DNA of 64,000 bases from positions 3,311-67,310 of the IMG/VR virus record IMGVR_UViG_2690315896_000001; one strand, written 5' to 3'. Position 1 is the first letter of the stretch. Each line of letters opens with the position of its first letter. This document shows positions 5,319 to 41,309 of the stretch, piece after piece. Below the pieces are notes generated by a model. The model did no database searches. It was given only the letters and a program-made list of their open reading frames with translations, and was not told where the DNA came from. This DNA comes from a virus. Its lineage: Duplodnaviria > Caudoviricetes. The position numbers and the translations under genes are program-made.

Positions 5319-5626
5319 GGCGCCCCCCAGTCGGTTTCGGGCTCCGGCTTCAGCCCAGCTAGGCGCGCGAGGCGCTGCCGCTGCTGGGCACGCTGATAGT
5401 CCTGGCGCCACTTCCAGACCAGATATCCGGCCTGCAGCGCAATGAAGGCCAGGGACGCCACGACGAGCCAGTCGCTCAGCGGCAGGCCCCAGACCTTGAA
5501 CACCCCGGTCGCGGCGGCGCCCGGCGTGGCCTGCATGATGGCGCCGGCAATGTCCTGCCGCTGCTCTGCGCTCAGGTGCTGGTGGATGCCCATCAGCGCG
5601 AGCAGGGATACGAGGTATTTCTTCAT
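5315..5626 (-). CDS. Holin
   Basis: Hydrophobic helices, basic C-terminus, ATGA overlap with endolysin. Confidence 0.75.
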   Translation of the reverse strand: MKKYLVSLLALMGIHQHLSAEQRQDIAGAIMQATPGAAATGVFKVWGLPLSDWLVVASLAFIALQAGYLVWKWRQDYQRAQQRQRLARLAGLKPEPETDWGAP

Positions 5627-9199: not shown

Positions 9200-9596
9200 C
9201 ATGCCGGATCAGCTCACAATCTCAAATCATTGGGATATGCTCAGCCACTTCAATAATTCAAAGGAATTCCGCGTGCATCCGAAGATATATCCCGGCGACA
9301 GGGAAATAGAAGAAATATTCCCCATTGAAGTACAAGATTTGATCAAAGCATTAGTTGCTGCAGAAAAAAATCTCAGCATGAAGCAGCGATTACTAAATGA
9401 AGCTTTCCAAGCAAAAATGGCAGTAAACCGCCGACCCTCTCAAACTCAAACGCCTGAAGAGTGTGTATACGACGACGCCGAACGGGAAGTAAGCACAGCA
9501 AATCATGCGCACATACGAATCAGAGATGAAGTTCTCGCACTTTCTTTGCGCGACCCAAAGTATTTGAATTTCTTCGGGGCATACGGGCTGCTATAG
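9180..9596 (+). CDS. Low-GC hypothetical moron protein
   Basis: Antisense to the late operon, AT-rich; start uncertain (9201 or 9237 possible). Confidence 0.6.
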   Translation: MANPSRGMPDQLTISNHWDMLSHFNNSKEFRVHPKIYPGDREIEEIFPIEVQDLIKALVAAEKNLSMKQRLLNEAFQAKMAVNRRPSQTQTPEECVYDDAEREVSTANHAHIRIRDEVLALSLRDPKYLNFFGAYGLL

Positions 9597-19611: not shown

Positions 19612-22600
19612 TTAGAGCGCACCAACCATTCTGCTAAGTTCTTGTCGCAGGAACTTTGGCGAGTTGTCAGCGATCCGATCGGTCCTGTTTTTGCCCATCT
19701 CGCGCACCTTCTTCCACACGTCGGGCATCTTGACGACGATGGGCTGCTCCGGATTGTTCTTGTTCCAATCGGCCAGCCGTTCGCGCGCACGCACCAGTGC
19801 GCCCTCGTCCTTGCGGAACAGCGCATCCGCCCACTGCGCCTTGATCTCGCTGCTGGTCTGGCTGTAGAAGCTCTTTGCCCGCTGCATGAAGCTGTTGGCC
19901 TCCTGGATCTCGGCCGCGCTCTTGGGCTGAAAGCCGATGGCCTTGGCCACAGCCTCGCCCAAGGTCGTGTCGATCACCTTGTAGCCCTTGGTGTCCTTAT
20001 ACATCCCGCTCGCGGCCATATCCAGGCCCTTGACCGCATTGCGCACGGCCGTGGGAGACACTTCCAGCGCCGCGCGGCCCGCTGCAGACGGGTCAAGATT
20101 CATCACCCCACCCACCAGTTCGCGTCCTGCCGCGAAGCCACGGGACACCAGATCGCCCGCCGGCCCCGCAACCTCCAGCAGATCTCGTTCGCGGCTCTGC
20201 TTCGTCAACAGCAGGCCGGTACCGGGCAGCAGGTTGCCCATGCCCAGGCGCCCGGACACATCGATGGGCGCACCCGGCAGACCCGAAAGCCCCTGCTCCA
20301 TGAACTCTCCCAACTCCTTGCCCACGATGCTCGCGAGCGCCTCCTTCCGCCACTGCTTGGAACTGAGGTTGTAGCCCATCATCTGGCCCACGCCGTCGAT
20401 CAGGTCCTCGGCGTCCTCCATGAAGGGCACGCCGCCGGCGCCGCCCATCAGCAGCAGCATGGCCAGGGCCCAGCCCACGGCGCGTTTTCCTTCCGGGCCG
20501 CCCTGCTTCCACATCCGCTGCATCAGTTCCAAGTAGGAGACGCTATACGTTTTAAACGTAAAAAGAGTGCCGGCTACCGCGCCGCGCGCCCACTGGGGCT
20601 TGTTGGCCTTGGAATAGACGAACTGCGTTTCCAGCACCGCCTTGCGCGCAAAGGCGCCCGGATCATCCATGCCCTGGGCCTTGGCGATGCGGAAGGCCGC
20701 AATGAAAGTAGAGCGCCGGTTGAACTGCTCAGCCAGGGCGAACGGCTGGCCCCATGCCACCTTGGCGCGTTCCCAGGCATTGCCGACCGCAGCGCGCGCA
20801 TCGCCGGCGCGGGTGCCGTCGCCCGAGCGCAGGCCGCCCGCACCCCGGGCCTGGGACATGAGTTGGTGAACTTCCTGTGGCGACACCACGCCATCGTCCT
20901 CGGCAGACTTCAGCGCGTGAGCGAGATCAGTCTCGTACTTCATACCGCGCGTGCCCATGTCCTTCAGGGCCCGGGCCATCTGGCTGCCGGCCCCACGAAT
21001 ACCGCCGAACTGGCTCAGCCAGGGTAGCGTCACCGCAAAGGGCTGCGTCATGTTGACCGCGGCCGAGGCCAGCGAACCGCCCAGGTACTGCGCGAACAGC
21101 ATGCCGCGCACAGCCTGGCCCTCTTCCTGGGGATCGCGGATGTAGCTGCGCAAGCCCATGGCCAGGTCCTTCAGCTCGCCCTGCTCCTTGGGGATGTCGT
21201 TGATCGCGCGATCCATGGCGCCGGCATTCAGGCCCGCCGCGCCCTGGCGCGCATTGCTGTAGATGAAGTTGGCCACCACGCGGCCCACGTCCTGGCTGTA
21301 ACCCTCGATGCCCTTGCGCTGGATCAGACGCTTCAAGGCGCTGTGGTTGTTCTTCGTCAGCTTCAGGTATTCATCGAACACCTTGCGCGTGGCCGCGTCG
21401 GCCTCCTTGCCCACCACCATGTCCTTGAAGATCTCCAGCGTCTCGGGCGTGATACCCGCGAACAGCTTGAAGGACTGCTGGCTCATGGTGCCCTGGGTGA
21501 TCACAGCGCCGGGGAAGGCCTGGGCCATCTGGATCTTGGCCAGGTTGGCATCCTTCATGGTCTCGTACATGCCGAAGTACTGGCGGCTGCCATCCTGGTC
21601 AATCACGTCCAGCGTGTAACGGCCGAAACGCGACAGCGGCGCATACCCGCCGTCCTGCAGATCCTTGGCCGTGGCTGCCCGGTCCACCACCATATTGTTC
21701 AACTGCAGCAGCCGTTCGGCCATGTCCGGCTTGGCCTTGGCATCCTCCTGCAGCGTGGTGGTCAGCAGCTCCAGAGCATCGGACAGCTTGGGCGCGTCCA
21801 GCACCATGTCGCGCAGGCCGGCGTACTCGTCGCCCAGCGCGCGCATCATGTCCGCGCGGGCCGTCATGTCGATGGATCGGTCGATGGCCGCGCGCGCTTC
21901 GCGGTACAGGGCAATCTGATTGGGCGTGGCGCCGAACATCGTCTGCAGCTCGGCGTCCGTCCAGACCGCGCCGGCCTTGAGCATCTTGCTCTCGAAGCGA
22001 GAATTCACCAGCGCTTCGTACTGGGCCAGCGGCAGCCCGCGCCACGCGCGCAGCATCCGGTCGTCCAGGCGGCCGGCGCGCAGCAGCAGCTGGGCCTTGT
22101 CGTCGGCGGGCAGGTTGCCGTACTTCTTGGCCAGCTCGTCCACCAGCACGGCCTTGCCGTCCACGTCCCGGCCCCACAGCAGCGTGCCCTCAAAGAGAGG
22201 CTTCGCCACGGCCTTGTTGTCGGCGGCGGAAACAGGCGTCTTGCGGTTCTTGCCCACGAGGTCGCTGATGGTGTCCACGCGCGGCAGCAGGCGCGGCGCC
22301 CGGTCGGCCGCGTCGTTTGCCAGCATGGACACGTCATCGATGTTGCGCTGGGCCGTTTCGTAGACCGGCTTGAAGGCTGGGGCGCGTTCGGCCAGGTGGC
22401 GCATGGTGCCGATGGTCTTGTCCCAGACAGAGACCTTGCCCGGGTGGGACATCGTCTTCTGGAGATGATCCAGTGCGCTGTCCTTGATCTCCGAAAGCCG
22501 CGAGCGGCTGAAGCTCAGTTCGTCGCCTGCATCGCCTTTGCGAGGATTGCCTTGATCTGCGCGCTCGCCTGCGCGTCGTCCTTCTTCAGCGATTCGATCT

Positions 22601-25600
22601 CGGAGTCGCTGAGCCGGCTCGAAGCGTGCAAGGTACCGGGCTTCAGACTCTGTGAGGGCGTCGAAGCCGTAGCCTGTGGCTGCACGGAATTGGTCTTCGA
22701 GGTCGCCATGTTTTTGCCGGAGAGAGGTCAGAGTTTCGGGAGAGGGCTGGATTTTTGCACTGTACTGCTTGCCGGTCAACGCAACCACGCCCACCACATT
22801 GCCTCCACCTTCACGAATGTGGCTGGCCAGGGCCGCGAACGTGCCGCCCTGCGTGAGGGTGTCATCCACCAGGAGGTAGTCGCCCGGCTCTACGGCGCCC
22901 GCGAAATCGACAGGTGCAAAGATGCGGTCCAGTCCATCCAGGCCGGTGCGCCGCGCGCGATTCGCCTGCACTATGCCCGTCGCAGTTTCGAGGCCCAGGC
23001 GTGCAGCCAAGACCTCGGCCACGGCGCGCGGGATCTTGTTGCGGCCCGAGGATTCCTCGGCGGCCACCGGCAGCACACGCGGCCGCGCACCACCCAGCGC
23101 AGTTGCCACCTTCGCCACCATCTCAGGCGTCACGAGGTCCACGGCCAGCCGCGTGGCCGCCGCAACATCCCCGCCCTTGGCCGCAGCGTAGTCGGGATGC
23201 TTCGATGCGCTGCCCAGCGTGCTGCCAATGATGGCGTCAGGCGTGACGGACGCCGAGTCGGCGCGACTGAACACCGGCTCGATGCGATCGGTTGCTGCGC
23301 GCTGCCCGCGCTCCACGAAATCGCGCGCAGGAAGGATGTAGCCCTGGATGATGTCGGCATCGCTCAGCTTCAGACCCCTGAACCCGGGCACGTTGGCCCG
23401 CAGCCAGTTGCGGATGGCGGCCACGGCACGGCGCACGAAATGCAGCTGCGGCGTCTTCTCGGCCATCTCGGCCAGCACTTCCTCGGCCGCGTGGCGCCGG
23501 CTCAGGTCCGTGACGCCGCGCAGCCCGTACTCCTTGATCTTGGCCGCCACCTCCGCTTGGCGCATGGTGGCCACCTGGTTGAGGATCTTGTTCAGCTCCG
23601 GGCCGAACATGCCGCGCAGGCCGTGGTGGCCCAGCACCTCATGGTGCAGCACACGGGCTGCGTCGGCGGGCGTGTTCAGCTTGCTGGCCAACAGGTAGGC
23701 CTTGCCGCGCCAGTAGAAGCCCTCGGGCGCACCACTGGCGCCGCCACTGCGCTGGCGCAAATCCGCGCGCCGCGCCGCATCGGGCACGGCCGGGTCGTTC
23801 ATGTCGAAGGCCACCACCACCTCGGGGCCGTTGCTCCAGCCCTTGCGGATGGCATCTACCGTCGCGCGCACCTGGCCCACGGCCTGGGCCCGCGCCGCAT
23901 CGGAAAATGCCGCCGGCTCGGGCCGCATGATGCGCAGCAGGTTGGCCATCTGGTCATCGGTGAGGCCCTGGGCCTCCGCCTCGCCGCGCCGGAATGGCAA
24001 CTCCTCGGTGCGCTCCACTGGCCCGGCCTTCAATTCGCGCGCGCTGGGCGGCGTGGCATGGGTACGCTCGCGCACGCCCTGCACATCCTGCCAGCCCGAG
24101 CCCTGCTTCTCCACCTGGCGTACCGTCACGCTCCATACGCCGTCGGCATTGGCGGGCGTGTACGAGACCACGCGGACATGGCTATCCCCGTACCCCTTCA
24201 CGATGTTGCCCGGGGTGAAGTAGTCGGCGCGCGCCGCTTCCTCTGCGGCCACCTTCTTGGCCAGGACGCCGCGAGGCTTCTTCGAGGCAGGCGCCGCGGC
24301 GTCCACGGCTGCAGGTGCTGCAGGTGCTGCAGGTGCTGCAGGTGCTGCAGGTGCTGCAGGTGCTGCAGGTGCTGCAGGTGCTGCAGGTGCTGCAGGTGCT
24401 GCAGGTGCTGCAGGTGCTGCAGGTGCTGCAGCAGCATCGGGCATGGCGGCGGCCAGCTTCTCGCGCACCTTGGGCGCCAGGTCAGCCCATGCCCGGGTAT
24501 GAGCGCCCGCCCGTGCTGGTGCGTTCAGCCCCTTCGCGGCCTTTGCCACAGCCTGGCGCTCGGCCGACGGCATGCTGGTCCAGCGCTCGCTGGCGGCCAG
24601 CAGTTGAGCGCGCCGCGCCTCGTTGCCCTGTTGAGCGATGGCCACGGCCTGCTGCTGACCCGCCGTGGGCGCTGGTGCAGCAGCAGGCGCTACACCGGCA
24701 GCCGGTTCGCTGGCGCCACTTCGGCCAGGTACAGCAGGTTGCATGCCGGCAGCAGGCTGTCCGGCACCTCCCCCTCGCGGCCCAGCAGACTGCGCATCTG
24801 GCGCGCGTCCCGTCGGCTCACCGCCCCCGGCCTCCGCAGCAGGCGCAGGGCCTGCTGGGCGTTCATCTGCCAGCCGTACTGCAGGTGCGGGTGAATCATC
24901 GGTTGCTCCTTGCGGCGCAATGGCGTCCGCGATCTTGAGTTGCAGGTCCGCATTCAGCCGCTCCCAGGTCGCACCGGGGAGAGCCTTCCGGATGACCGGC
25001 TTCAGGCCCTCAAGCCGTCCGGCCAAGGCCTTGCGCTCTGCGGGGGACATGCTGGCCCAGGCCGCGCGCCCGGCGTCGATGCGCTGGGCAGGGGTTTGGA
25101 CTGGCGCTTGAGCTTGCGAGCCTGGCGCCGTACCTGCTTGCGCGCCATCGTGCTGAGACGAGGTGGTGCCATTGGTCAGCCCCTGCGCAGCTGCAGGACC
25201 TGCAACCGGCGCTCTCTGCGCTCCTGCTGCCTGCGAAGATTCCGCGCGCGGCGGCTGGGCTTGATCGGCTTGTGTGCCATCGATGCTTCCTTGCTGGGTG
25301 GATGGATTGGCTGATGCGGCCGGCACGGCGGCCGGGGTCTGCTGGTCACGCTCAGCGCGGCGGCGCGACAGCTCGCGCGCCAGCTGCAGGCGCACGTTCT
25401 TGGCTTGGGCAGAGCGGAATGCGTTGGACAGGTCTTCATCCGTCCAGGTGGCCATGGCCCCGCCCGCGATCTCGCCGGTGGCAGGGTCTGCAGTTACCCG
25501 GCGCTCGGATGCCTTCTTCTTGGCTGGTCCACGTGCCGCCTGCTCTGCGGCCTGGGCCATGGCACTGGCCTGCTGGGCCTGAGCCGCCGCGCCGGAGTCC

Positions 25601-26991
25601 ACGGCAATGGCAGCAGCTGCGGACAGGGAGCCGGCAGCAGGGTCCAGGCCCATGGCCTCGGACGGGCGCAGTTCACCGACGGCAGCGTCTATGCGCGCGG
25701 CATCGAGTTGCGGCGCAGGCGTGATGCCCTGCTCACGCAGCCGTCCTTCATCGATGACCGGCTCTTGCTGGACAGCCAGCTGCCGCATGAATTCATCGCG
25801 CACCTTCGACAGGCCCGAAGGCGTTTCGCCAGCGGGTGGGTTCTCGCTGTCCTGCTGGAACAGATCCGGGCTGAACGCCTGGTGCAGCGAATCCGCCGCG
25901 GCTTTTCGCTCTTCGGGGGACAGGGATTCATCCTGAGCGCGTGCCAGTGCATCTCGGTACTGCTGCTGGTTTTCGGGCCGCACCATCTGGTCGATGGCCG
26001 CTCCGTAGGTTGCAACGTCTGGCAGTCCTGTTGGCTCGGCGTCCGTTGGCAGCTGGTCTGCAGCAGCGGCAGCCTGGCCTACCTCGGCCTCCGCTGCGCC
26101 ACCGTGCCGACCAGTCAGCAGCGACGTGCCGGCGCCAGTAATGCCCCCCAAGGCTGCGCCCATGCCAGCAGCAGCAGCCACGCCCTTGGATGGATCAATG
26201 GTCGGATCGAATGGCATGGCCGCCCGCTGACCCTCGTACTGCGTGACGCCTTCCTCAACAGCCTCCTGAGCCGCCTCGCTCGCCCCCGTCTTCGCCGCGC
26301 GTGCAACAGTGCCGCCCGCGAACCCCTTGCCACCGGCCAGGAGACGCTCCGCGCCAAACGCGCCGCTGACCCCGCCCACAATGGCCGGGATGACACTGGC
26401 GCCGCGCCCCGCAGAGACAGCCTCATCCTCCGTGGCGCCAGCATTCTTGGCGAGGTCATAGGCTGTGCCCGCAGCATCCCCGCCCGCCATCGCCGCGCCA
26501 GCCGCAACACCGCCAGCCTGAGCCGCGCGCTCGACACCCTTCGCTCCAAGGCCGGCCGCGCGCCCAAGAGCACCAGCACCCTTCACCGCCGCGCCCGGCC
26601 CAACGAACGAGCCAGCTGCCTGGGCTGCTGCGAGCACAGGATTGCGGACGATGTACCCGCCCACCGCACCAAGCTCATCCGTCACGCCCTCGGCGCTATC
26701 CACCTTTTGCTTAAAGCGTTGCTTTTCGGCCTGAACGACGGGGCTCTGCTTGGCTTCGCCGGCCTGGATGATGTTCTTGTCGATCCAGCCGGAGACCGCG
26801 TTTCCAGGTTTGATGAAGTTGGCAGCGGAAGAGACGCCGCCGGCCGCCGCGTTGGCGACTTCGATGACGGTGTCGTTTACTGCTTCGAAGCCGCTTCGCG
26901 GTGGCGATTTCTCATGGAAGCGGGCAAACGGGTTTGGGCTCCCGTCAGCGTCTGCCTCGGGATGAAACTTTGCGAATGGGTTCTGTGCCAT
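19612..26991 (-). CDS. Giant PLxRFG-domain polyvalent (ejection/internal virion) protein with metallopeptidase and phosphoribosyltransferase domains
   Basis: 2459 aa; APLSRFG; HHEVLGHHG; LLVDDTLTQGGT PRPP-binding loop. Confidence 0.85.
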   Translation of the reverse strand: MAQNPFAKFHPEADADGSPNPFARFHEKSPPRSGFEAVNDTVIEVANAAAGGVSSAANFIKPGNAVSGWIDKNIIQAGEAKQSPVVQAEKQRFKQKVDSAEGVTDELGAVGGYIVRNPVLAAAQAAGSFVGPGAAVKGAGALGRAAGLGAKGVERAAQAGGVAAGAAMAGGDAAGTAYDLAKNAGATEDEAVSAGRGASVIPAIVGGVSGAFGAERLLAGGKGFAGGTVARAAKTGASEAAQEAVEEGVTQYEGQRAAMPFDPTIDPSKGVAAAAGMGAALGGITGAGTSLLTGRHGGAAEAEVGQAAAAADQLPTDAEPTGLPDVATYGAAIDQMVRPENQQQYRDALARAQDESLSPEERKAAADSLHQAFSPDLFQQDSENPPAGETPSGLSKVRDEFMRQLAVQQEPVIDEGRLREQGITPAPQLDAARIDAAVGELRPSEAMGLDPAAGSLSAAAAIAVDSGAAAQAQQASAMAQAAEQAARGPAKKKASERRVTADPATGEIAGGAMATWTDEDLSNAFRSAQAKNVRLQLARELSRRRAERDQQTPAAVPAASANPSTQQGSIDGTQADQAQPPRAESSQAAGAQRAPVAGPAAAQGLTNGTTSSQHDGAQAGTAPGSQAQAPVQTPAQRIDAGRAAWASMSPAERKALAGRLEGLKPVIRKALPGATWERLNADLQLKIADAIAPQGATDDSPAPAVRLADERPAGPAPAAEAGGGEPTGRAPDAQSAGPRGGGAGQPAAGMQPAVPGRSGASEPAAGVAPAAAPAPTAGQQQAVAIAQQGNEARRAQLLAASERWTSMPSAERQAVAKAAKGLNAPARAGAHTRAWADLAPKVREKLAAAMPDAAAAPAAPAAPAAPAAPAAPAAPAAPAAPAAPAAPAAPAAPAAVDAAAPASKKPRGVLAKKVAAEEAARADYFTPGNIVKGYGDSHVRVVSYTPANADGVWSVTVRQVEKQGSGWQDVQGVRERTHATPPSARELKAGPVERTEELPFRRGEAEAQGLTDDQMANLLRIMRPEPAAFSDAARAQAVGQVRATVDAIRKGWSNGPEVVVAFDMNDPAVPDAARRADLRQRSGGASGAPEGFYWRGKAYLLASKLNTPADAARVLHHEVLGHHGLRGMFGPELNKILNQVATMRQAEVAAKIKEYGLRGVTDLSRRHAAEEVLAEMAEKTPQLHFVRRAVAAIRNWLRANVPGFRGLKLSDADIIQGYILPARDFVERGQRAATDRIEPVFSRADSASVTPDAIIGSTLGSASKHPDYAAAKGGDVAAATRLAVDLVTPEMVAKVATALGGARPRVLPVAAEESSGRNKIPRAVAEVLAARLGLETATGIVQANRARRTGLDGLDRIFAPVDFAGAVEPGDYLLVDDTLTQGGTFAALASHIREGGGNVVGVVALTGKQYSAKIQPSPETLTSLRQKHGDLEDQFRAATGYGFDALTESEARYLARFEPAQRLRDRIAEEGRRAGERADQGNPRKGDAGDELSFSRSRLSEIKDSALDHLQKTMSHPGKVSVWDKTIGTMRHLAERAPAFKPVYETAQRNIDDVSMLANDAADRAPRLLPRVDTISDLVGKNRKTPVSAADNKAVAKPLFEGTLLWGRDVDGKAVLVDELAKKYGNLPADDKAQLLLRAGRLDDRMLRAWRGLPLAQYEALVNSRFESKMLKAGAVWTDAELQTMFGATPNQIALYREARAAIDRSIDMTARADMMRALGDEYAGLRDMVLDAPKLSDALELLTTTLQEDAKAKPDMAERLLQLNNMVVDRAATAKDLQDGGYAPLSRFGRYTLDVIDQDGSRQYFGMYETMKDANLAKIQMAQAFPGAVITQGTMSQQSFKLFAGITPETLEIFKDMVVGKEADAATRKVFDEYLKLTKNNHSALKRLIQRKGIEGYSQDVGRVVANFIYSNARQGAAGLNAGAMDRAINDIPKEQGELKDLAMGLRSYIRDPQEEGQAVRGMLFAQYLGGSLASAAVNMTQPFAVTLPWLSQFGGIRGAGSQMARALKDMGTRGMKYETDLAHALKSAEDDGVVSPQEVHQLMSQARGAGGLRSGDGTRAGDARAAVGNAWERAKVAWGQPFALAEQFNRRSTFIAAFRIAKAQGMDDPGAFARKAVLETQFVYSKANKPQWARGAVAGTLFTFKTYSVSYLELMQRMWKQGGPEGKRAVGWALAMLLLMGGAGGVPFMEDAEDLIDGVGQMMGYNLSSKQWRKEALASIVGKELGEFMEQGLSGLPGAPIDVSGRLGMGNLLPGTGLLLTKQSRERDLLEVAGPAGDLVSRGFAAGRELVGGVMNLDPSAAGRAALEVSPTAVRNAVKGLDMAASGMYKDTKGYKVIDTTLGEAVAKAIGFQPKSAAEIQEANSFMQRAKSFYSQTSSEIKAQWADALFRKDEGALVRARERLADWNKNNPEQPIVVKMPDVWKKVREMGKNRTDRIADNSPKFLRQELSRMVGAL
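24308..24431. repeat. Perfect 9-bp tandem repeat (GCTGCAGGT) x13 plus partial, encoding (PAA)n
   Basis: Read directly from the sequence. Confidence 0.95.
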
Positions 26992-26997
26992 CCCCCC

Positions 26998-27041
26998 ACT
27001 CTCAAGGAGAGGTGCGATGGCGGTCGAACCCTAGCCGGGGG
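26998..27041 (-). promoter_or_regulatory. Putative late promoter (giant protein)
   Basis: CCCCCGGCTAGGGTT-N23-GAGAGT-N6-ATG, just downstream of a terminator hairpin at about 27046-27069. Confidence 0.65.
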
Positions 27042-27092
27042 CGTGAAAAAGCCCCGGCGTGCGGGGCTTGTGGATGAGGCCGGCGCGCCCGG

Positions 27093-27293
27093 CTACTCGC
27101 GGCCCAACTCGGCCAGCGTGTCCTGCAGCGTATTGATCAGCCGCTCCACATCTTCAGGAGGCATATCGACCCAGGTGGTTGCAATATCGAGCCCTGAGGC
27201 AGTCTTGGCCGTGTGCTTGAGGCCGATGAGCGTCTTCCCGTTGAAGACGCGAGTGCGAACGTCGGTGAACTGAAGGAGGGGTGCAGGAATCAT
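27093..27293 (-). CDS. Hypothetical protein
   Basis: 66-aa ORF followed by a terminator. Confidence 0.55.
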   Translation of the reverse strand: MIPAPLLQFTDVRTRVFNGKTLIGLKHTAKTASGLDIATTWVDMPPEDVERLINTLQDTLAELGRE

Positions 27294-27335
27294 GGCGTGA
27301 TAGTGGCACGGAACGCCCGCGCTAGGACGATAGCC

Positions 27336-27632
27336 TCACACGGGCCGCGTCCGCACCTCAGCTGTCCAGGCAGATTGCCCTCGGGGCAGCAACGAGCCCT
27401 GATCCGTTGCAGCGATGTGGAGATATTCGCCCTCTCCCAGCGCGCGAGCCTGCTGCGACAGCTGCTCGCGCACGTCATTGGATTCAGCGCGGAGCTTGCT
27501 GATCACCATCTTGTTCACCTTCAACTCGCGACAACAGCGGCAGGAAAAGTGCATCCACTTTCCATAGTCTTCGAGGTAGGCAGTGCACTGGAGGTTGCAT
27601 AACGGGCACGGGGCTTGGATGGAGTCTGGCAT
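27336..27632 (-). CDS. Small zinc-ribbon-like protein
   Basis: CPLC...CRCC; GGAG RBS. Confidence 0.55.
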   Translation of the reverse strand: MPDSIQAPCPLCNLQCTAYLEDYGKWMHFSCRCCRELKVNKMVISKLRAESNDVREQLSQQARALGEGEYLHIAATDQGSLLPRGQSAWTAEVRTRPV

Positions 27633-27906
27633 GGAGGCACTCCAGGGAATGACTGAGTTCGAAGAAAACGGTAACCCTGTTGTACCCCAGTCGAGCGGCG
27701 AATTCTGACGTGCCGGGTTAGGGCTTGGCCTAGTCTGAGCAGGCACAGAGATTGCCGCCTGTACAGCCTCACAGCCTGGGAGAAGATACATATTGGTACA
27801 AGAGTCAAAAGAAAAGTAGCATGCGCTCACATTCAAACAATCGAAAGCGTACTGACATGCGAGTATCAACAACTCCTGCCGTTGCCAATTCGGCAGAGAG
27901 TCCCCA

Positions 27907-28160
27907 TGGATGAGTGCAAGCCGGGCCAGGACAGCGACCAACAACCCCCGTGGTCGCCTGCGGGTGCACTGGCCCTGCTTATTTTGGCGGCGCTTGCGAT
28001 AGCTGCGGCGATTTGGCTCATGGCGAAGCGGCACCACACCCCGCTATGGCAACTGCGAGCACCCACCATTGCCGCACCGGCGACAGAAGCTTCGCCACCA
28101 GCCGCAGCTGCCGAAATGCAATGCCCAAATCAGAACTGGGCTGTAGGCGAACGCACATGA
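27907..28160 (+). CDS. Small membrane protein
   Basis: Single strong hydrophobic helix. Confidence 0.4.
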
Positions 28161-28235
28161 TGAGCTTCTGGCGCAGGGCTGGGTTCAGAGACGACGAAGC
28201 CCGCCGAAGCGGGCCTGTACAGAACTTGGCCAAGC

Positions 28236-28451
28236 CTACTTGCGCCCGCCCACGTAGTGCCCACCCTTCCCGCTCTTGCCCGATCCGCCGACACGCTTGC
28301 TGCCCTTGCGTCCAGCAGCCTCGAAGGACAGGGACGATTCAGTGGACTTGCCCGAGGCGAACGTAGCGCCTGAACCTTGGCTTGGCAACAGGTCGCCGGC
28401 CTGCGCCGACGTAGCTGCTGCCAGGGCGATTGCGAGGAATGCGATTTTCAT
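28236..28451 (-). CDS. Small secreted basic Gly/Lys-rich peptide
   Basis: AAGGAGG RBS, signal peptide ending AQA, GSGKSGKGGHYVGGRK tail, terminator after. Confidence 0.7.
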   Translation of the reverse strand: MKIAFLAIALAAATSAQAGDLLPSQGSGATFASGKSTESSLSFEAAGRKGSKRVGGSGKSGKGGHYVGGRK

Positions 28452-28672
28452 GGAGAGGCCTCCTTGTTGTGGTCGGGCCATGCTATCGCTGGGCCGGCGC
28501 GTTGCACGAGGGTCGCTTTCCCTACTTGCTTTGACGTGCGTCACGCCGCGGCTTGGCCAAGTCACAAACGACAACGCCGCGCGGGTCGCACACTGTGGGC
28601 AATTGGAAGAACGATGGCCCTCTAGGACTACGATGCGTGCTCCTACACAGCCAACCCGAAAGGGGCAAATCG

Positions 28673-28915
28673 ATGGAGACTCATTCATTCGCTGGGTCGC
28701 GCACCCTGGTGAAGGGCTCCTACAGCCCCGAAACCCATCTCCTTCGCCTGTGGTTTACGAGCAGCCCGGATCGCGCGTATGACTATCCGAGGGTGCCGGA
28801 GCATATTTGGACCGGGTTGAAAGCAGCTCGTTCGCCAGGCGGCTACTACAACGACCACATTCGTGACCAGTTTGGCGAGCCGCACGATCCAGCAAATCAC
28901 TGGCTGCATCGATAG
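28673..28915 (+). CDS. KTSC domain protein
   Basis: GSYSPETHLLRLWF..YDYPRVP..GLKAARSPGGYYNDHIR. Confidence 0.85.
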   Translation: METHSFAGSRTLVKGSYSPETHLLRLWFTSSPDRAYDYPRVPEHIWTGLKAARSPGGYYNDHIRDQFGEPHDPANHWLHR

Positions 28916-29195
28916 CCGCTCTCACCCTTGAAAAATCGACGGTCCAGCTAGTCTCTGGTGCCAGCGGCAAGTCAGGCCGGTCGGTGGCCACGCAGCCACC
29001 ATGGAAGTCGAACTCCCGCCGAGCGAGCAGCAGCACGTCGCGCACATAGGCCAAGTCGGCGTCAGCAGGCCGCGCGCCAGCTTCAGCTCGCCGCGCCGCA
29101 GCCCTCGCACGATGCGCCGCGCACATTGCAACGCAGGCCAAGACGAGCGCCAGGAACAGCGCACCAGAGAGGATGAGGATGGGGAGATGTGCCAT
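28755..29195 (-). CDS. Membrane-anchored hypothetical protein, late-promoter driven
   Basis: N-terminal TM; promoter motif 5 bp upstream; 3' end overlaps the KTSC gene antisense. Confidence 0.5.
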   Translation of the reverse strand: MAHLPILILSGALFLALVLACVAMCAAHRARAAARRAEAGARPADADLAYVRDVLLLARREFDFHGGCVATDRPDLPLAPETSWTVDFSRVRAAIDAASDLLDRAARQTGHECGRCSSRLANELLSTRSKYAPAPSDSHTRDPGCS

Positions 29196-29200
29196 GCCCC

Positions 29201-29242
29201 AGTGTCAGCACCAGGGCGGGACCGCGCGAACCCTGGGCGGGG
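29201..29242 (-). promoter_or_regulatory. Putative late promoter
   Basis: CCCCGCCCAGGGTT-N22-GACACT-N5-ATG, downstream of a terminator at about 29247-29268. Confidence 0.65.
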
Positions 29243-29435
29243 TCGTAAAAAAGCCCGCTGGTGCGGGCCGGTGTCGGCAAGGGCCACTTGCGCCGGGCGG
29301 CGTCCTCCGCCTCCAAGCGCGCTATGCGCTCAGACAGCCCCTCTAAACGTCATTTGGCGGGGGGCTCGGTGCGGCGCCAATGCCAGGTACTTCCGTCATC
29401 ACCCAGTTAAAAATAATCAAAAAAACTTTAACTCA

Positions 29436-30727
29436 TTAAGCCAGCATTAGCTGATATATGAAAATAATATTTTTTCCAATTTCCGCCAAAAAATTTTCAC
29501 TTCCACAGTGAAAAATCAAACCAAAAAAAAGATTAATCCAAGGATAGATATGCAAAAAACAAATTAGAACAGAAAAGAATATAGGCAACCTAGCAATAAA
29601 TTTATAGAATTTGAAAGTTCTATTTATTTCTATTTCTTGCCTGCATTTGAATTGAGTGATTCTCTCAATCTCATCTCGTATAACTTTGCTGAATGTTTTT
29701 TTCGGCTTAGACGACTCTAAAAGATTGAACTCAAAACTATTAAGCAAATTATCAACTTGGTTTTTGTAATGCCTGATGGTTCTAAGTATTATTAAACTAG
29801 CAAACACGACCCCAACCAAACCGATTATAAAACTCAATACGTTTTCAGCATCTTTAATCACAATCAGAACACCAAGAGATGCAGGTATTGCTAGCAGCTT
29901 TGTACCTATCTCACCAATCGCATTATTTAATTTCGTCGTACTTTCAATCAATCCATCGGAAATCTTTTTTCTAGCAGAATCAAAGGAGAAAGAGCTTACA
30001 TAGGCGTGTAGATCATGTAGATACTTTTTTGTTACTCTCCCCAATTTTTCACCAAATACTCAAAATCCACATTATCATCATCACATTCACCTACAGTTTC
30101 AGCAATTGCAGTATTCATCAAAAGAATGCGCTCTTCTATTTGATGCTTAGTCTTACCTTCGAATTGATTTTTAAGCGCATCCAATATTTTAAAACTTGGA
30201 ATTTCGACGGAAATTGCATTGACGGTTAGATTGACTTTCAGGATAGCCGCCTTCTGCGGAGATTTACCATCAGAGGGTTTGAGGAAAATTAATTTATCAG
30301 CTTCAAATGCCTGCACCCGGTCAATTGATATCGAAACAAAACCTCGCAGACTAAAAATGAAGTTAACTACACTACTCAATTTCTCAATTTGCTCTGGCTT
30401 ATTCTCATCACCGTCCCAATAATCAAGATCTCGGATATAGTAATTATCTCTGAGAATACCGCGGGAAAGTGTAGGAGTATTTTGGATGAAATCTTCAAAT
30501 GTCTCGAAGAAAGCACCGCGCTCCGAATTCGGAATTTTTAACTCAAACTCGATTTTTCCACCGTTGCGCAGCGGATCTACGGGGCTAAAGTCCTCTTCGA
30601 CCAGCTGATAAGCTGCCAACGCGTCAGAAACAACATCCGTCTCTTCAACGTCAATAGGAAGACGGGCTCCATTCTTAAATGGAGGCCTTCCGACAGCTCT
30701 ATATAGATCAACGACATTTTTAAACAT
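29436..30727 (-). pseudogene. About 430-aa protein with C-terminal TM helices, frameshifted at a G4 tract
   Basis: ORFs 30032-30727 and 29436-30044 join if one G is added at 30039-30042; low GC. Confidence 0.7.
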
Positions 30728-31837
30728 GTTTGTCTAACTCATCAATTTGCTTATCAGACAATCTGATTCTCAAGTAACCCTCTTCCCTATTGAACTGAAC
30801 CTTTGAATTTACAGAAGTTCCAAAGTCAGATTTTTCAAACTTTATCTCAACATCGTCATCCTTCAGTACAATTCTAGAGTATTTCCTCAGAGACATTTCA
30901 TTTACTGAAAAGCTGACTGGTATTTTGTATTCAGGACCATTTAATATATCCACAAAATCATCAAAGTGCTTTGACAAGTCAACTGGAAAAATTCTTTCCA
31001 CATTTTGCTTCACATCCTCCAACGAGGCCGCCAAACCCGCACCCATTTGTTTCTTCAAATATGTGCATACGGCCTCTTTCACTCTGGAGGCATGTACTTT
31101 GAGCGCTGGGTTTTTTACACAATAATCATACGCAGCCTGTATAACAAGCGCAGTGGATCTCTTCGATGACCTGTGCAACACACATCCCAACGCCTCAATG
31201 AAATATGACGCCGCATCATCTGAGTCTCGGCTAGCTATAAAGGAAAGGTATGATGACAATTCCAAATCATCAACATCGACGCCTTGTCTAAGTTGCTCAC
31301 TTTCATCCTGCATTGATTTCAAGTAATCCGAAACCTTAAACTCGGACGCGTGGCTTAATTTTGTCATATCCACTTGCTCAATATCGACAGGCACATAATC
31401 CTCTGTCAATCTGATTCCGCCCTTCTGCTTAATCATAGCAATTATCAAATTCTGCTCATTGTCATCCCCCTGTACAAGCCAAAAAGTATTTTGGACCCTG
31501 TTGCCAGTCTACTTTTTATGGCCTTACTGACAATCGCGTCAACCGCAACATGCGACAGCGCTAAAAAAACACTTTTATCGGCGAGGTCTGGCTGAGACGA
31601 CACGCATTTCTGAAAGCTATCTGGGAATGGTCCTCGAAATGCATCATCGCCAAATCGACCCCAAGCCAAACTATTCTCTTTTTTCCCAAGGAGCTTAGCC
31701 ACACCCTCTACCAATGAAACTACGGGCGCCTGAGAGACATCTAGAACCTCATTTTTTTTCACAATACCAGACACTGCTTCTGCATATTTCTCTTTATCAA
31801 ATCCGTGAATTACAGCATTAATAATTTCAAAAGGCAT
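30720..31837 (-). pseudogene. NdpA/YejK-like nucleoid-associated protein, frameshifted at a G5 tract
   Basis: NAVIHGFDKE, ATGSKILF, IAMIKQKGG, YLSFI..ASYFIEALGC motifs; one extra G at 31466-31470 gives about 372 aa. Confidence 0.75.
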
Positions 31838-31999
31838 TTGTTTTTCCTGAAGAGTGGTTACGTGTCTGAATGTAACCCATCTCGCCCAAGCTGCCCCCTT
31901 CGTTGTCCCCAGTGCGATTGGCGACTCGACGCCAATCGGCTCCCTCAGCAAACAACCAATCAGCGAACCCCGGAGCACGCCTTTCCTCTGCCTCGCATA

Positions 32000-32015
32000 C
32001 TGTATAAACATACAG
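32000..32015. promoter_or_regulatory. LexA (SOS) box
   Basis: TA-CTGTATAAACATACAG-CA, a near-consensus CTGT-N8-ACAG. Confidence 0.8.
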
Positions 32016-32125
32016 CAAACCCACAAAACACACAATAGGTCGATGGGACTGCCAGCTTCAAGTCATGCTGTGCACGGCTGGCACATCCAGCGACGCTGCT
32101 ACAGTCCCGCCAACAGGAGGGAACC

Positions 32126-32614
32126 ATGGGATCTTTCAGCGCCATTCACTGGCTCATCGCACTGCTTGTCATCGCGCCCGTTGCGGCTCTGATGGTCGTC
32201 CCTGCTTGGCGCATCCTGCAGCGATCGGGGCACAGCGGTGCCTGGGCACTGCTCATGCTTGTGCCTGTGCTGGGCTTCGTGGTGCTGTGGGTGCTGGCCT
32301 TCTCGAAGTGGCCAAACGACAAGGATGGGAAGACCAGCACCAGCGTTCCCGGGATCATCCTGGGCATTGTTCTGGTGCCGCTGTCCATCGGATCGGTGGT
32401 GATGCTGTCTTCGGCGGGAATGCGCGTAGCCGCGCCAACAGGGCAAGCTGCGGCGGCCCCTCAGGGGAATGGCCCAGGGCAGAAGTACCAGGGACATCCA
32501 GCCTCTTCGCCCAATCCGTTTTCCAACCCCGACTACGGGAAGGATGCCGCGGCGCCACGACCCATCCAGCAGAACAATGACGAAGAAAATCCCTTCGCAA
32601 AGTTCCACCGCTGA
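32126..32614 (+). CDS. Inner-membrane moron protein (DUF805-like core) with flexible tail ending NPFAKFHR; candidate superinfection exclusion factor
   Basis: TACAGT -10, AGGAGG RBS, three hydrophobic segments, antisense to the late operon. Confidence 0.8.
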   Translation: MGSFSAIHWLIALLVIAPVAALMVVPAWRILQRSGHSGAWALLMLVPVLGFVVLWVLAFSKWPNDKDGKTSTSVPGIILGIVLVPLSIGSVVMLSSAGMRVAAPTGQAAAAPQGNGPGQKYQGHPASSPNPFSNPDYGKDAAAPRPIQQNNDEENPFAKFHR

Positions 32615-32616
32615 AT

Positions 32617-34248
32617 CTAACGCGCTGCCAGTACTTTCTGAGCAGCCCCCGCACCGTAATACTCATCAAACTGCTTGGCCATGGATGGATTGCTTTTAAG
32701 CAGGGCTACCGAGTCGCTGGTAGGCGTGTAATTCGCCCCCGCTGGACTCTTCGCTCCGGCCGCATCCACCTGCTGCACCTCGCCCGTGACGGCGTTGTGC
32801 CGGATGATGCTGCCCTGGGTTGTTGACCCGTCTGCATTCTTGATGGCCGGCGTGACCGTGACCTTCCACGGCGACGGATCTGCATCGCCCCGAATAGCGC
32901 GCATGGACTGCTGAGCCTGTTGCTTCTGCTGGGGAGTGGCATTGGGATCGAGCAGCGTATTGCGCAGCTGCTCTTCCTGACGCTGGGCCCGGGTCTTGAA
33001 GCCACGCGCTTCGGCCTCGCCCTGCAGGCGCTGCTGCTCGACGCCCACGCGCATGCCCGTGCGCCCGGTTTCCCCGGCCTGCTGCATGGCCTCGCGTTGA
33101 AGGCCACCGGCTTGCTGCATGTCTTCGCGCATGAGGCCAGCGTTCTGGCGCATGGTCTCTGCCTCCATACCTGGCTGGGCCTGGCGCAGTGCTGCATCGG
33201 TCCCCAGCATGGCGCGGTACCGTTGCATGTCTGGGCTGTTCTCGGCGCCACGGCCGCCGAAGCGCCGCGTGTTGGTGATGGAGCTGGCCGAAACTTCGGC
33301 ATTGCGCAGATCGTTGCGGGCTTGCCAGTCGTTGCCCGAGTGGGCGATGGTTGGCGTGCGAAAGCCCGGGAAGCCCAGGCGCGGCTGCTCGACCTCGGTA
33401 CGCTGGCCTGGCGTGAAGCCGCGTGCCGCGTACTGGCTGGCCAGGTTCTCGCCGGCCGCGTCGTTGCGCCGCGATGGCAACCCGCGCGGCTCGTTGCCCA
33501 GCGCCGCGCCCTGTGCGCTGTCGGCGAAGCTGTTGCCCTGCCGGAAGATCCCGGGCTGGATTTCCTGCGGCGCGGCCGAGCTGGGCGGGCCCATGGTGCT
33601 GCCAGTGGGTGGCGTGGCCTGCGGCGTTGCAACTGAGCTTGCTGGAGCTGTGGAGGGCGCGGGGCTCGCCATCGTAGAGGCGGCAGCAGGGGCTGAAGCT
33701 GCGGCGGCACCTCCCCCGATCCCGGCGCCGACCGCAAGTCCACGCGCGGCGTTGGTCCCGGAGTTGATGGCGCCACTGATCGCCCCGCCCGTGCGTCCCA
33801 CAACGGACAGAGCGCCGCCCAGTCCAGCCGGTGCAGCATTTGCCAGATTCGACACATTGCGGCCCAGCTCGGTGTTCATGGGATTGGACTGCGAGCCGTC
33901 TGGAGTCGGCGCCTTGGGGTAGCCGCCCAGAGGGATCTGGTCCTCTGGCGCACCACCATTGGCGAAGAACACCTTGGGCTTGAAGCCGCGCGGCACGAAT
34001 GCTTGCTCGGGCGCTGGTGTGTGGGTGGCATCGACGGCGGCCTGCAGCGCGCCAGCGCCGCCCATGGCGTGCACGGTATCGGGCGGCAAGACGAACTCAC
34101 CCGGCTTGAACATGCCGGGGATGGAGTCGGGCGCCTGGTTCTGGGCCTGGGCCAATGCAGCCCGCTGACCGGGCGCAAAGCCACGGGGCCCTGTGTATTC
34201 GGACGGTTGCTCCATTGCGGAGGCTTTCTTGGGAGTGAATCCGCGCAT
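32617..34248 (-). CDS. Ejection (DNA transfer)-type internal virion protein
   Basis: DSIPGMFKPGEFVLPPDTV motif, A/Q/G-rich, C-terminal LKSNPSMAKQFDEYYGAGAA, located after the adaptor gene. Confidence 0.7.
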   Translation of the reverse strand: MRGFTPKKASAMEQPSEYTGPRGFAPGQRAALAQAQNQAPDSIPGMFKPGEFVLPPDTVHAMGGAGALQAAVDATHTPAPEQAFVPRGFKPKVFFANGGAPEDQIPLGGYPKAPTPDGSQSNPMNTELGRNVSNLANAAPAGLGGALSVVGRTGGAISGAINSGTNAARGLAVGAGIGGGAAAASAPAAASTMASPAPSTAPASSVATPQATPPTGSTMGPPSSAAPQEIQPGIFRQGNSFADSAQGAALGNEPRGLPSRRNDAAGENLASQYAARGFTPGQRTEVEQPRLGFPGFRTPTIAHSGNDWQARNDLRNAEVSASSITNTRRFGGRGAENSPDMQRYRAMLGTDAALRQAQPGMEAETMRQNAGLMREDMQQAGGLQREAMQQAGETGRTGMRVGVEQQRLQGEAEARGFKTRAQRQEEQLRNTLLDPNATPQQKQQAQQSMRAIRGDADPSPWKVTVTPAIKNADGSTTQGSIIRHNAVTGEVQQVDAAGAKSPAGANYTPTSDSVALLKSNPSMAKQFDEYYGAGAAQKVLAAR

Positions 34249-34268: not shown

Positions 34269-34940
34269 CTAGGGCAGATGGATGACGTTGGTGTGTGGCT
34301 GGTCGTGCCGCGTGGCCCGGCGCAGGTCCGAGTCCGGCCGCATGCCGAAGTAGCTTTCAAAGACCGAGTACGACTGCTGCGACTTGCTCGGATCGAAGCC
34401 ATCCGCATCAGGCTGCCCGAACGCGCGGTACAGGGCCCAATGCACAAGATAGGCGTGGTGGGCCCCATGAATCTCGGGTTTGTCGTGGCAATGGGTCAGC
34501 TGTTTGAGGGGCAGCCGATAGGCCTCAAGCCGAAGAATCCCGGCCTCGCGCGGCGTGGGCACCAGGCGAAGCCGCGTCTCGGTCTGGATGGCGAAGCGAG
34601 GCTCATCGCTGCAGCGGTCGCGCCAGTACGGATCCTTGCGATCCAAATACTCGCGCGATACCACTGCCAGCTCTCGACCTTCACTGGTCGATGCGCCGAC
34701 AAACCGCAGATGGGCGATTTCGTAGACCTTGGGGTGCAACTGGTAGCTGGCAATGTCGGCCGCGACGGCGATCTCGCAGACACCCGGCGTGGAATCATCA
34801 AGCAGCAGTCGGCCGCGCACTGCCGCCTCCGACTGGGCTTCATTGAACCAGCCCACGACCTGGGTCTCGCCCCAAAGATACGGCTCCTCCACATCCTTGG
34901 CGTCGGATCGAAACAGGGCGATCAGGTCCTGAAGAGTCAT
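34269..34940 (-). CDS. Head-tail adaptor (tail tubular A/gatekeeper-like)
   Basis: MTLQDLIALFRSD..PYLW..WFNEAQSEA, LRLVPTP and LVHWALYRAF motifs. Confidence 0.75.
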   Translation of the reverse strand: MTLQDLIALFRSDAKDVEEPYLWGETQVVGWFNEAQSEAAVRGRLLLDDSTPGVCEIAVAADIASYQLHPKVYEIAHLRFVGASTSEGRELAVVSREYLDRKDPYWRDRCSDEPRFAIQTETRLRLVPTPREAGILRLEAYRLPLKQLTHCHDKPEIHGAHHAYLVHWALYRAFGQPDADGFDPSKSQQSYSVFESYFGMRPDSDLRRATRHDQPHTNVIHLP

Positions 34941-35994: not shown

Positions 35995-37287
35995 TCAGCC
36001 GCGTGGCTTGATGATGGGCACGGCGGTATCAAGCACCGTCACACCGTGGTCGGTGAACTGCTTGGTGTCGCCATGGCTGACCGCGAAGCGGATCTTGGAC
36101 ATGCCCAGGATGGCGCCGATGGCGATTTCCATCTTGTCGTCAAAGTCGCCCGGCGCTTCCTTCCAGAAGAAGGGCACGCCGCTGTGGTCGGAGCGGCCAA
36201 AGGCCTGACCCAGTGCCTGGCCACCCAGCAGGATGGCGCGGTCCACGGCGTACTTGTCGGTGAACGATGCGGGCACCAGCACCGACGACTCCTGCTCGCT
36301 GGTGTAGCTTGCGCAGTAGCGCAGCTCGTCGCCAGCGTAGAAGCGGATTGCCTTGGGCATCTTGATGATCAGGATGCCGTTCCACAGACCTGCTTCGCCC
36401 AGGAACAGCGGATGATCCTTGGCCAGCCGTGCGCGTGCCATGGCGTTGCCCTGGAACGCGCGGAAGTTCGGGTCCGTGGCAAAGCCGCTGTACTGAGCCG
36501 GCGATGCCAGGAGCACGCGGATGGGGCTGTCGGTGGCGGCCAGGTCCTCATCGAACTCGACAGGCGGGGGCGGCAGCGGGATCTGGTCCATCCACGAACG
36601 CACGGCATCCACCACGTCCATGCTCAGCGTGTCGGCGCTGGCGATCACCAGCTCGCCCGCGTTGGCCTTGACTTCGCCCACCGCGCCCGCGCCAGCCACC
36701 AGGTGGCGATTGCGCGTCGGCGCCTTCACCCGGTTCACCATGATCTCGGAGAACTTGGGGTGCGACGCCAGCGGCACGCGCCATTCGATCAGGTGATCGT
36801 TGAAGCCGCGCGCGCCGGCCAGGTGAACCAGCGTCGAATGCTCGATGTAGTCGTCCATCAGGCGCTGTGCCTTGGGGCGGCCGAACTTGCGCAGGTCGTA
36901 GGGCGTGCGGATGCGCGACATCTGATCGCCCATGTCGATGGGAAAGCGCGCCTGGTTCACACGGAACCGCGCGTTCTCGTAGCTCATGCCCACGCCCTTG
37001 CCCTCGGCAAACTCGCTGCCCATGATGGGGTAGCTGCCAATGGGCTGGTCGAGTTGGAACTCGACCTCATCGCCCTTGCCCTTGCCCAGGTCCTCGGCAC
37101 GCACGATCGGCATCGTGGGCTTGGTCTGGCGCTTGGTGCCGGCCACGGCATCCGCCTCGGTGGGCATCTTGCCGGTCAGGCGGTTGAGCGTGGTGCGGCG
37201 CTGCATGCAGGTGTGGAACACGCCCACGGCCTGCTGAATCATGGTCCCAGGGTGACCATAGGGAGTGCTGGTCTTGGTGTCGGACAC
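35995..37287 (-). CDS. Major capsid protein (N4-gp56/DUF4043 type)
   Basis: DLGKGKGDEV, VNQARFP, HLAGARG, HPLFLGEAGLWNGILI, DRAILLGGQAL. Confidence 0.9.
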   Translation of the reverse strand: MSDTKTSTPYGHPGTMIQQAVGVFHTCMQRRTTLNRLTGKMPTEADAVAGTKRQTKPTMPIVRAEDLGKGKGDEVEFQLDQPIGSYPIMGSEFAEGKGVGMSYENARFRVNQARFPIDMGDQMSRIRTPYDLRKFGRPKAQRLMDDYIEHSTLVHLAGARGFNDHLIEWRVPLASHPKFSEIMVNRVKAPTRNRHLVAGAGAVGEVKANAGELVIASADTLSMDVVDAVRSWMDQIPLPPPPVEFDEDLAATDSPIRVLLASPAQYSGFATDPNFRAFQGNAMARARLAKDHPLFLGEAGLWNGILIIKMPKAIRFYAGDELRYCASYTSEQESSVLVPASFTDKYAVDRAILLGGQALGQAFGRSDHSGVPFFWKEAPGDFDDKMEIAIGAILGMSKIRFAVSHGDTKQFTDHGVTVLDTAVPIIKPRG

Positions 37288-41299: not shown

Positions 41300-41309
41300 G
41301 GTGTCGTCC

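Follow-up and report, generated by a model that had tools for sequence, protein, structure and literature searches.

The 64,000-nucleotide stretch of DNA analysed here (the window), part of the 67,310-base provirus record IMGVR_UViG_2690315896_000001, belongs to an F116-like temperate podophage integrated as a provirus, its nearest named relatives being F116-like podophages and not P22. It encodes a small membrane protein (the carrier) whose C-terminal tail ends in a heptapeptide, NPFAKFH, identical to residues 4-10 of a very large virion-type protein (the giant protein) encoded on the other strand. Sequence comparison with related prophages finds this kind of mimicry in at least three unrelated carriers and at least 11 motif classes with in-locus pairs, together with a co-varying C-terminal module in a third protein, a member of the F116 gp58 family. 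We consider it probable that the carriers export a peptide decoy that would cap the gp58-like module of incoming phages and block assembly of their ejectosome, i.e., superinfection exclusion. A preliminary description of this DNA had proposed such a decoy, and the comparisons support that interpretation. The elements concerned are the following (positions in the window):

19612-26991, minus strand: giant protein, 2459 amino acids (aa), virion/ejection type, PLxRFG / IVP-D-like (IVP, internal virion protein); more structural genes lie beyond it
26914-26982, minus strand: hypervariable N-terminal peptide of the giant protein, candidate docking peptide, two tandem copies
26962-26982, minus strand: motif copy 1, NPFAKFH, giant residues 4-10
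26914-26934, minus strand: motif copy 2, NPFARFH, giant protein
32126-32614, plus strand: carrier ("moron") gene, 162 aa, carrier family 1, an open reading frame (ORF) with its translation
32507-32539, plus strand: second, heterotypic tail motif of the carrier, SPNPFSNPDYG, residues 128-138, of the class that the giant protein of L017 has at its N-terminus
32588-32608, plus strand: C-terminal candidate decoy motif of the carrier, NPFAKFH, residues 155-161, identical to giant residues 4-10, in the tail end ENPFAKFHR
32617-34248, minus strand: 543-aa protein, candidate binder, phage F116 gp58 family, phrog_11341
32620-32709, minus strand: candidate C-terminal specificity module, last 30 aa of the 543-aa protein, which tracks the giant peptide
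32456-32875: swapped cassette relative to locus L002, spanning the tail of the carrier and, in the 543-aa gene, the final ~86 codons, delimited by breaks in blastn homology

The giant protein opens with MAQNPFAKFHPEADADGSPNPFARFH, and translation of its ORF bears out both this start and the first motif copy at 26962-26982. The tail reported for the carrier, with SPNPF and the end ENPFAKFHR (motif at 32588-32608), is equally present. As had been noticed, the heptapeptide is identical in the two proteins and four of its seven codons differ synonymously (AAC CCA TTC GCA AAG TTT CAT vs AAT CCC TTC GCA AAG TTC CAC). NPFAKFH has an expected frequency of 1.2e-10 per position, is the sole 7-mer common to the carrier and any other six-frame ORF of at least 100 aa in the window, and only one of 200000 composition-preserving shuffles of the 162-aa carrier had any 7-mer in common with giant residues 1-26. 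AlphaFold2 models the carrier with three hydrophobic helices (residues 6-34, 38-60, and 74-97), predicted to be transmembrane, followed by a tail of ~65 aa that is of low confidence from residue 97 (pLDDT, the predicted local distance difference test score, below 50 over residues 97-153) and predicted to be disordered. Being provirus-encoded and carrying three predicted transmembrane helices, it shares the envelope location of exclusion proteins of the SieA and Imm kind. Among 15 carrier homologues the ~100-aa membrane part is nearly invariant and the tails are unrelated and hypervariable.

A search with the N-terminal domain of the giant protein yielded 33 more viral loci, and loci were gathered from viral, genome, and metagenome contigs. 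In all nine loci that have both a carrier-family-1 homologue and the giant N-domain, the carrier tail bears the motif of its own giant protein, amounting to eight distinct motif pairs, for instance:

L002: giant IDEFLKNAPQ and VDAFLADAPP; carrier tail IEEFLRDAPPQ
L004: giant NEWWKQGATTVE (twice); carrier tail DEWWKKGSTLV
L017: giant NPFSDPSYG and NPFADPNFG; carrier tail NPFLDPNFG
L020: giant ISYEEAFGLPP; carrier tail ITYEEAFGLPA
L023: giant DSFGG (twice); carrier tail DQFGG

We ranked 33 distinct giant peptides against 15 carriers picked by homology alone, nine of them membrane proteins and six belonging to the secreted family described below; the set omits L046, which duplicates L044, and the two truncated members of the secreted family found in L005 and L038. 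The carrier's own giant peptide came first in 12 of the 15 cases and second in the remaining three, where it was outscored only by a peptide of the same class. None of 100000 re-pairings matched the observed summed score, and eleven motif classes are covered. The proposed co-variation of carrier C-terminus and giant N-terminus is therefore present across this set. For a broader view we assembled a library of 120 distinct giant N-terminal peptides (33 from the loci and those of 91 out of 150 listed representatives with a usable N-terminus, duplicates removed). For 92 of 104 distinct tails (13/16 membrane, 79/88 secreted), the match to a library peptide outscored 99% or more of the tail's shuffles; six tails were reached by more than 10 of their own 200 shuffles. 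Per-tail shuffles were used here since a pooled shuffle threshold was underpowered, the exact match of the window falling below the pooled 99th percentile, and was dropped. Different codons are used at 74 of the 124 identical aligned residues (nucleotide identity 367/606); what is conserved is thus the peptide, and the likeness does not stem from recent copying of DNA.

The N-domain of the giant protein (residues 31-317) corresponds to phrog_18222, its C-terminal PLxRFG domain (residues 1781-2448) scores 777.9 bits with NCBIfam NF032893 (cut-off 100), phrog_21376 and phrog_11358 match it at E = 0, and over its C-terminal 40%, identity to proteins of the Pseudomonas phages F116 (p60, 56.6%), phiC725A, 8P, and relatives amounts to 56-57%. 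In the F116 group, the PLxRFG region has been related to T7 internal virion protein D (gp16) and its architecture likened to N4 gp50 (PMC4819975); the same relation and likeness are stated for phiC725A, and the homologue in H66 is given as a structural protein (PMC5217972). From these accounts we infer that the giant protein is packaged in the virion and ejected. Its N-terminal peptide is hypervariable between relatives and is mostly present as two tandem copies; an internal repeat reaches significance in 22 of the 33 distinct locus peptides and in 49 of 87 further representatives; this duplication of the key may be an avidity counter-measure. A second type of N-terminal extension, ~40-50 aa long, with the look of a small folded domain and no tandem short motif, occurs in P0160, P0165, P0166, P0182, P0184, and others, and no carrier tails resembling this type were seen.

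The preliminary description had called the 543-aa protein an ejection protein, which goes further than what is established, namely membership in the F116 gp58 family. It matches phrog_11341 with an E-value of 1.9e-107, as do F116 p58 (E = 0) and the homologue in L002 (E 1e-134), the latter two matching each other by BLASTP at 4e-25. Across 18 loci, the similarity of its C-terminal module follows the similarity of the giant peptides (Mantel r 0.745, 0/20000 permutations), compared with an r of 0.20 for the body of the 543-aa-type protein; controlling for the body leaves a partial r of 0.741 for the module. Each of the following peptide classes goes with one module type:

N-[PF]-F classes: window, L017, L042
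IDxFL class: L002, L006, L007
DWxKGxL class: L005, L043
KPFxGxLDGE class: L044, L052, L058
FDPxxA class: L049, L055
EWWKQG class: L004, L047, L077

The same class with the same module is found on unrelated protein backbones (e.g., L049/L055, L005/L043, and L044/L058), and module and peptide co-vary also in the carrier-less loci L043 and L058. Carrier tail, giant peptide, and module show a three-way co-variation. As a separate observation, a GGDP...W module occurs in two tandem copies at the giant N-terminus of P0209, P0220, P0222, and P0225, and at the gp58-family C-terminus in L054 and F116 (L071); in some lineages, the positions of lock and key may have been exchanged.

Carrier and 543-aa genes are convergent, the stop of the former ending at 32614 and that of the latter starting at 32617, a gap of 2 bp, and the two stops lie -4 to +9 bp apart in 9/9 loci. 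The carrier had been placed between two ejection genes: it does adjoin the 543-aa gene, and seven minus-strand ORFs (27336-32035) stand between it and the start of the giant protein. Relative to L002, a second break in homology, besides that at the cassette, falls around the first ~35 codons of the giant gene. In contigs of three public runs (X22, X23, and X24), positions 32121-32757/32764 are replaced by 770 or 919 other letters, a stretch that starts shortly ahead of the carrier ATG and runs 47 codons into the 543-aa gene. Public runs held at most 0.27 of the sampled window words per run (0.05-0.07 for RNA-library runs); the latter contain relatives as contigs, were used solely for the joints of the replaced block, and are uninformative on carrier transcription. 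Block replacement and homology breaks together indicate that the putative binder module and decoy form one cassette and that the giant's peptide is exchanged separately. The earlier idea of a single swappable cassette of binder, decoy, and peptide thus holds for module and carrier tail and fails for the giant peptide, which is ~5 kb away.

These data also bear on another explanation, in which the giant peptide docks to a periplasmic or inner-membrane host protein needed for DNA entry, the carrier tail blocks or down-regulates that site, and the module co-varies by sharing a block with the tail. Tail and module are contiguous, so that part of the three-way signal could be due to linkage, and L023 has the module type of another peptide class, as a decoy for a host factor would allow. 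However, closely related prophages from a few related host genera have 11 or more peptide classes, which would be hard to pair with as many host receptors, and the co-variation of module and peptide persists in carrier-less loci (L043, L058) and on unrelated backbones, so that we regard a host-factor decoy as unlikely.

The tails are not confined to one anchor. L039, L044/L046, L047, L049, L052, and L054 have no homologue of the membrane protein, and instead a protein of ~110 aa, encoded opposite to the giant's strand, ends in the motif of the locus. In this secreted family, unrelated to the membrane carrier, the N-terminus resembles a signal peptide and four cysteines are invariant; the members in L039, L044, L047, L049, L052, L054, and L077 each match their own giant protein. 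Among 117 homologues, the conserved core ends C-R-R-L-Y-D-E and is followed by a hypervariable tail of the same classes as in the membrane carriers; one such tail, DEENPFAKFHR, is the window's own tail motif. The signal-peptide-like N-terminus and the cysteines point to a periplasmic tail, out of reach of all but incoming proteins. A third anchor type, in L042, ends with the NFFDQFD motif of its giant protein. Some tails stack two or three classes (L005, P0028, P0074, P0077, P0116, P0134, and P0137), which fits defence against several kinds of kin and not a role in the phage's own assembly. As regards co-resident prophages, a search of 401 genomes in one family recovered the giant N-domain in just two. 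One metagenome-assembled genome (G003) contains two prophages of differing class, L005 (contig C12) and L077 (contig C43): the three-motif tail of L005 includes the L077 class, and the L077 decoy (WWKK class) does not cover the L005 class. This pair is compatible with exclusion, yet is no test of it, and such a genome may mix strains.

The model of a secreted carrier has four helices (AlphaFold2, pLDDT 78.3) forming a soluble helical domain of ~90 residues, for which Foldseek returned no PDB match at E <=0.001. Most homologue rows of this family carry the precomputed label PF28034, while our Pfam profile search gave no match, and the NCBIfam four-cysteine family VF_A0006 scored 39.4 bits, below its cut-off of 65. 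PADLOC-DB 2.0 had no match for the membrane, secreted, or third carrier, nor for the 543-aa protein, and the carriers gave no PHROG match either. Truncated, tail-less secreted-family copies of 48-67 aa are present in L005 (~9484-9756, oriented coordinates) and L038 (~5396-5497, likewise), both of which also have a membrane carrier, and among the short annotated proteins P0139-P0141; they may be decayed decoys. In L055, a 47-codon open frame (8226-8366, minus strand) next to the stop of the gp58-family gene lacks both an anchor and a clear start; its end is the FDP-type motif of that locus, and it may be a carrier remnant.

The variety of anchors helps to judge two further explanations. An exported carrier might be a sensor and not a blocker, capturing the ejected proteins of kin phages as a signal, e.g., for lysis inhibition or control of induction, a logic comparable to that of T4 RI. 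The position of the gene within the late structural operon region, a LexA-like box upstream in 3/9 loci that would fit expression at induction, and three transmembrane helices that could transmit a signal speak for this. On the other side, the secreted family is a soluble helical domain of ~90 residues without an output part, and the same tails on three unrelated anchors make the anchor seem interchangeable, a better fit to a passive decoy; we judge a sensor quite improbable. Still more doubtful to us is a shared targeting or processing tag, recognised by a phage chaperone, protease, or packaging adaptor during the phage's own morphogenesis. The peptide does sit at the extreme N-terminus of a virion protein, and N-terminal tags route internal proteins into capsids in other phages, but carriers that are membrane-anchored or bear an export signal leave the compartment of capsid assembly, and stacked motifs of other phages' classes would be useless in self-assembly. 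Chance, low complexity, or a recent DNA copy without protein-level function (e.g., a recombination inverted repeat, as the mutually inverted motif-coding stretches ~5.6 kb apart might suggest) is rejected by the shuffle (1/200000), re-pairing (0/100000), and codon results, 60% of identical residues using different codons, and by the recurrence of the pattern on three unrelated carriers.

Returning to competitive mimicry of the docking peptide, we postulate that the tandem N-terminal peptide of the giant protein would dock, after ejection, onto the C-terminal module of the gp58-family protein while the ejected proteins build a trans-envelope conduit for DNA, in a manner analogous to T7 gp16-N "taping" the gp15 C-terminal domain into a periplasmic tunnel. 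The carrier, presumably expressed in the lysogen, would display copies of this peptide as a free C-terminal tail, in excess, in the envelope of the prophage-bearing cell, where they would cap the docking module brought in by a phage of matching specificity class. With its module capped, the incoming giant protein could not join and DNA delivery would fail, the outcome being superinfection exclusion by competitive peptide mimicry. Stacked tails of several classes would broaden the range of exclusion, and escape, for a phage, would lie in replacing its peptide and module with those of another class. We are evenly divided on a broader generalisation, that of a programmable "ejectosome incompatibility" in F116-like podophages, with a lock-and-key joint in a dozen or more versions, swappable and stackable exported decoys, and an arms race among kin conducted at the peptide level with a binder-decoy cassette of ~0.4 kb.

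Several observations weigh against such a decoy. No decoy was found in the fetched flanks of 21 of the 39 loci with a giant N-domain; the remaining 18 show a carrier, counting the doubtful 47-codon remnant in L055. A positive-inside count of the membrane carrier (loop 1: K+R 2.0, no acidic residues; loop 2: K+R 2.75, D+E 1.94) slightly favours a cytoplasmic tail for this form, the opposite side from the secreted family. L023 (DSFGG class) has the module type of the EWWKQG class (L004, L047), i.e., the mapping is not one-to-one. As carrier tail and module are adjacent, their mutual co-variation could be due to linkage alone; the giant N-terminus is ~5 kb off, though, and linkage alone explains neither the tie to it nor that between module and peptide in carrier-less loci. 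The 543-aa protein is a putative virion or ejected protein, and for the F116 group PMC4819975 states that no IVP-A or IVP-B candidates are identifiable. Finally, a sigma-70 consensus scan found no plus-strand promoter upstream of the carrier, and a LexA-like box there hints at SOS control and not at constitutive lysogenic expression. The signals upstream of the carrier are:

32000-32015, plus strand: LexA-box-like palindrome, CTGTATAAACATACAG, in the intergenic region between divergent genes, upstream of the carrier ATG by 111 bp
32096-32105, plus strand: candidate extended -10 element, TGnTAnnnT-like, CTGCTACAGT, common to 6/9 related loci
32115-32120, plus strand: strong ribosome-binding site AGGAGG, 5 bases before the carrier ATG

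Of the promoter and ribosome-binding site initially ascribed to the carrier, the latter is therefore present and the former was not recovered by the scan, the TGnTAnnnT-like element being the candidate in its place. In three of the nine loci (window, L005, and L020), the DNA upstream of the carrier contains an exact CTGT-N8-ACAG. The count of LexA boxes across the window is not above chance (two found; 16 of 100 shuffles reach two), and the box may place either the carrier or the minus-strand genes under SOS control.

Prophage-encoded envelope proteins that block DNA entry via the tape measure protein are known from siphophages, i.e., Ltp of phage TP-J34 and gp15 of HK97, and we know of no peptide mimicry or co-varying cassette in either; nor, to our knowledge, is there a decoy in T7. 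P22 SieA, an inner-membrane protein made by a prophage, resembles the window carrier in being encoded by a temperate podophage. Escape mutations from SieA map to C-terminal regions of the ejection proteins gp16 and gp20, and two SieA sequence types, when compared, showed no difference in target specificity (PMC10883804). The abstract of that paper describes no mimicry of ejection proteins by SieA, which by this description is set apart from the window system, where specificity would reside in a swappable terminal peptide of at least 11 classes. T4 Imm binds the channel-forming tape measure protein of the incoming phage (bioRxiv 10.64898/2026.03.06.709160); it differs in coming from a myovirus and in being a binder and not a mimic of a partner peptide, and the abstract of the same preprint describes no modular specificity classes. 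Neither abstract mentions a virion-motif mimic, interchangeable specificity peptides, or a linked binder-decoy cassette (PMC10883804; bioRxiv 10.64898/2026.03.06.709160). A parallel to the proposed joint is found in T7, where gp16-N, a "molecular tape", stabilises the flexible gp15 C-terminal domain to form a periplasmic tunnel (PMC8954989). Here the N-terminus of an IVP-D-related protein co-varies with the C-terminus of the protein preceding it; unlike the T7 joint, the proposed one consists of a short linear motif and a ~30-aa module in many interchangeable versions, and the 543-aa protein has no sequence relation to gp15, none having been sought. In F116 (Hollowayvirus), gp58 belongs to the same PHROG as the 543-aa protein and has a C-terminus of the L054 module type, and the giant gene that follows it opens with two W-containing motifs; the F116 giant protein is split into two genes (gp59-gp60), with an N-domain different from that of the window.

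Exclusion at the DNA-entry step is of a known kind, and we rate the proposed mechanism and the protein families as new. No description of such mimicry was found in the full-text literature, supplements and subscription journals lying outside this coverage, so that an earlier description is possible. Were the broader reading to hold, it would be the first case of exclusion by mimicry of a docking motif of a virion protein and would provide a natural map of a protein-protein interface in the ejectosome. The pairing of podophage ejection proteins in the periplasm is little understood beyond T7, and how SieA stops ejection proteins is still an unsettled matter (PMC10883804). Comparative data alone here point to a specific interface, formed by the N-terminal peptide of the giant protein and the C-terminal module of the gp58 family, and suggest a simple way of blocking it by competition. 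Specificity that is readable from sequence would make exclusion ranges predictable in this phage group and offer a handle on the ejectosome joint, and the set of short orthogonal peptide-module pairs could serve as a tool.

The membrane carrier has no PHROG, no PADLOC match, and no Pfam match above threshold, the only Pfam family found being DUF6814 (18.9 bits, below the cut-off of 25). One homologue, P0008, is named DUF805 at NCBI, and the Pfam gathering score for DUF805 was not reached. A tblastn search with the carrier against 50,697 phage records gave no match. In the carrier tails of L006 and L007, two cysteines nine residues apart flank the motif; they could form a disulfide-closed loop, which would fit a periplasmic site. 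The gene is oriented opposite to its neighbours and is set within the late structural operon region, among the following:

27336-32035, minus strand: seven small ORFs between the carrier gene and the start of the giant protein
34269-34940, minus strand: SU10-adaptor-like protein, head/virion module
35995-37287, minus strand: major head protein, head/virion module
39008-41359, minus strand: portal, head/virion module
41310-42575, minus strand: large terminase, head/virion module

Between its N-terminal and central parts, the giant protein has a long Ala-Pro-Ala run (PAAPAA about a dozen times) at residues ~890-930, window positions 24200-24330. Two neighbouring pairs of small minus-strand ORFs each cover successive halves of one family: phrog_3767, the NA37 nucleoid-associated family, by 31445-32035 (positions 2-112) and 30720-31448 (positions 121-335), and phrog_5023 by 30032-30727 (positions 70-237) and 29436-30044 (positions 239-383). 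Both pairs, at 30720-32035 and 29436-30727, could be split genes, frameshifts, or natural two-gene forms.

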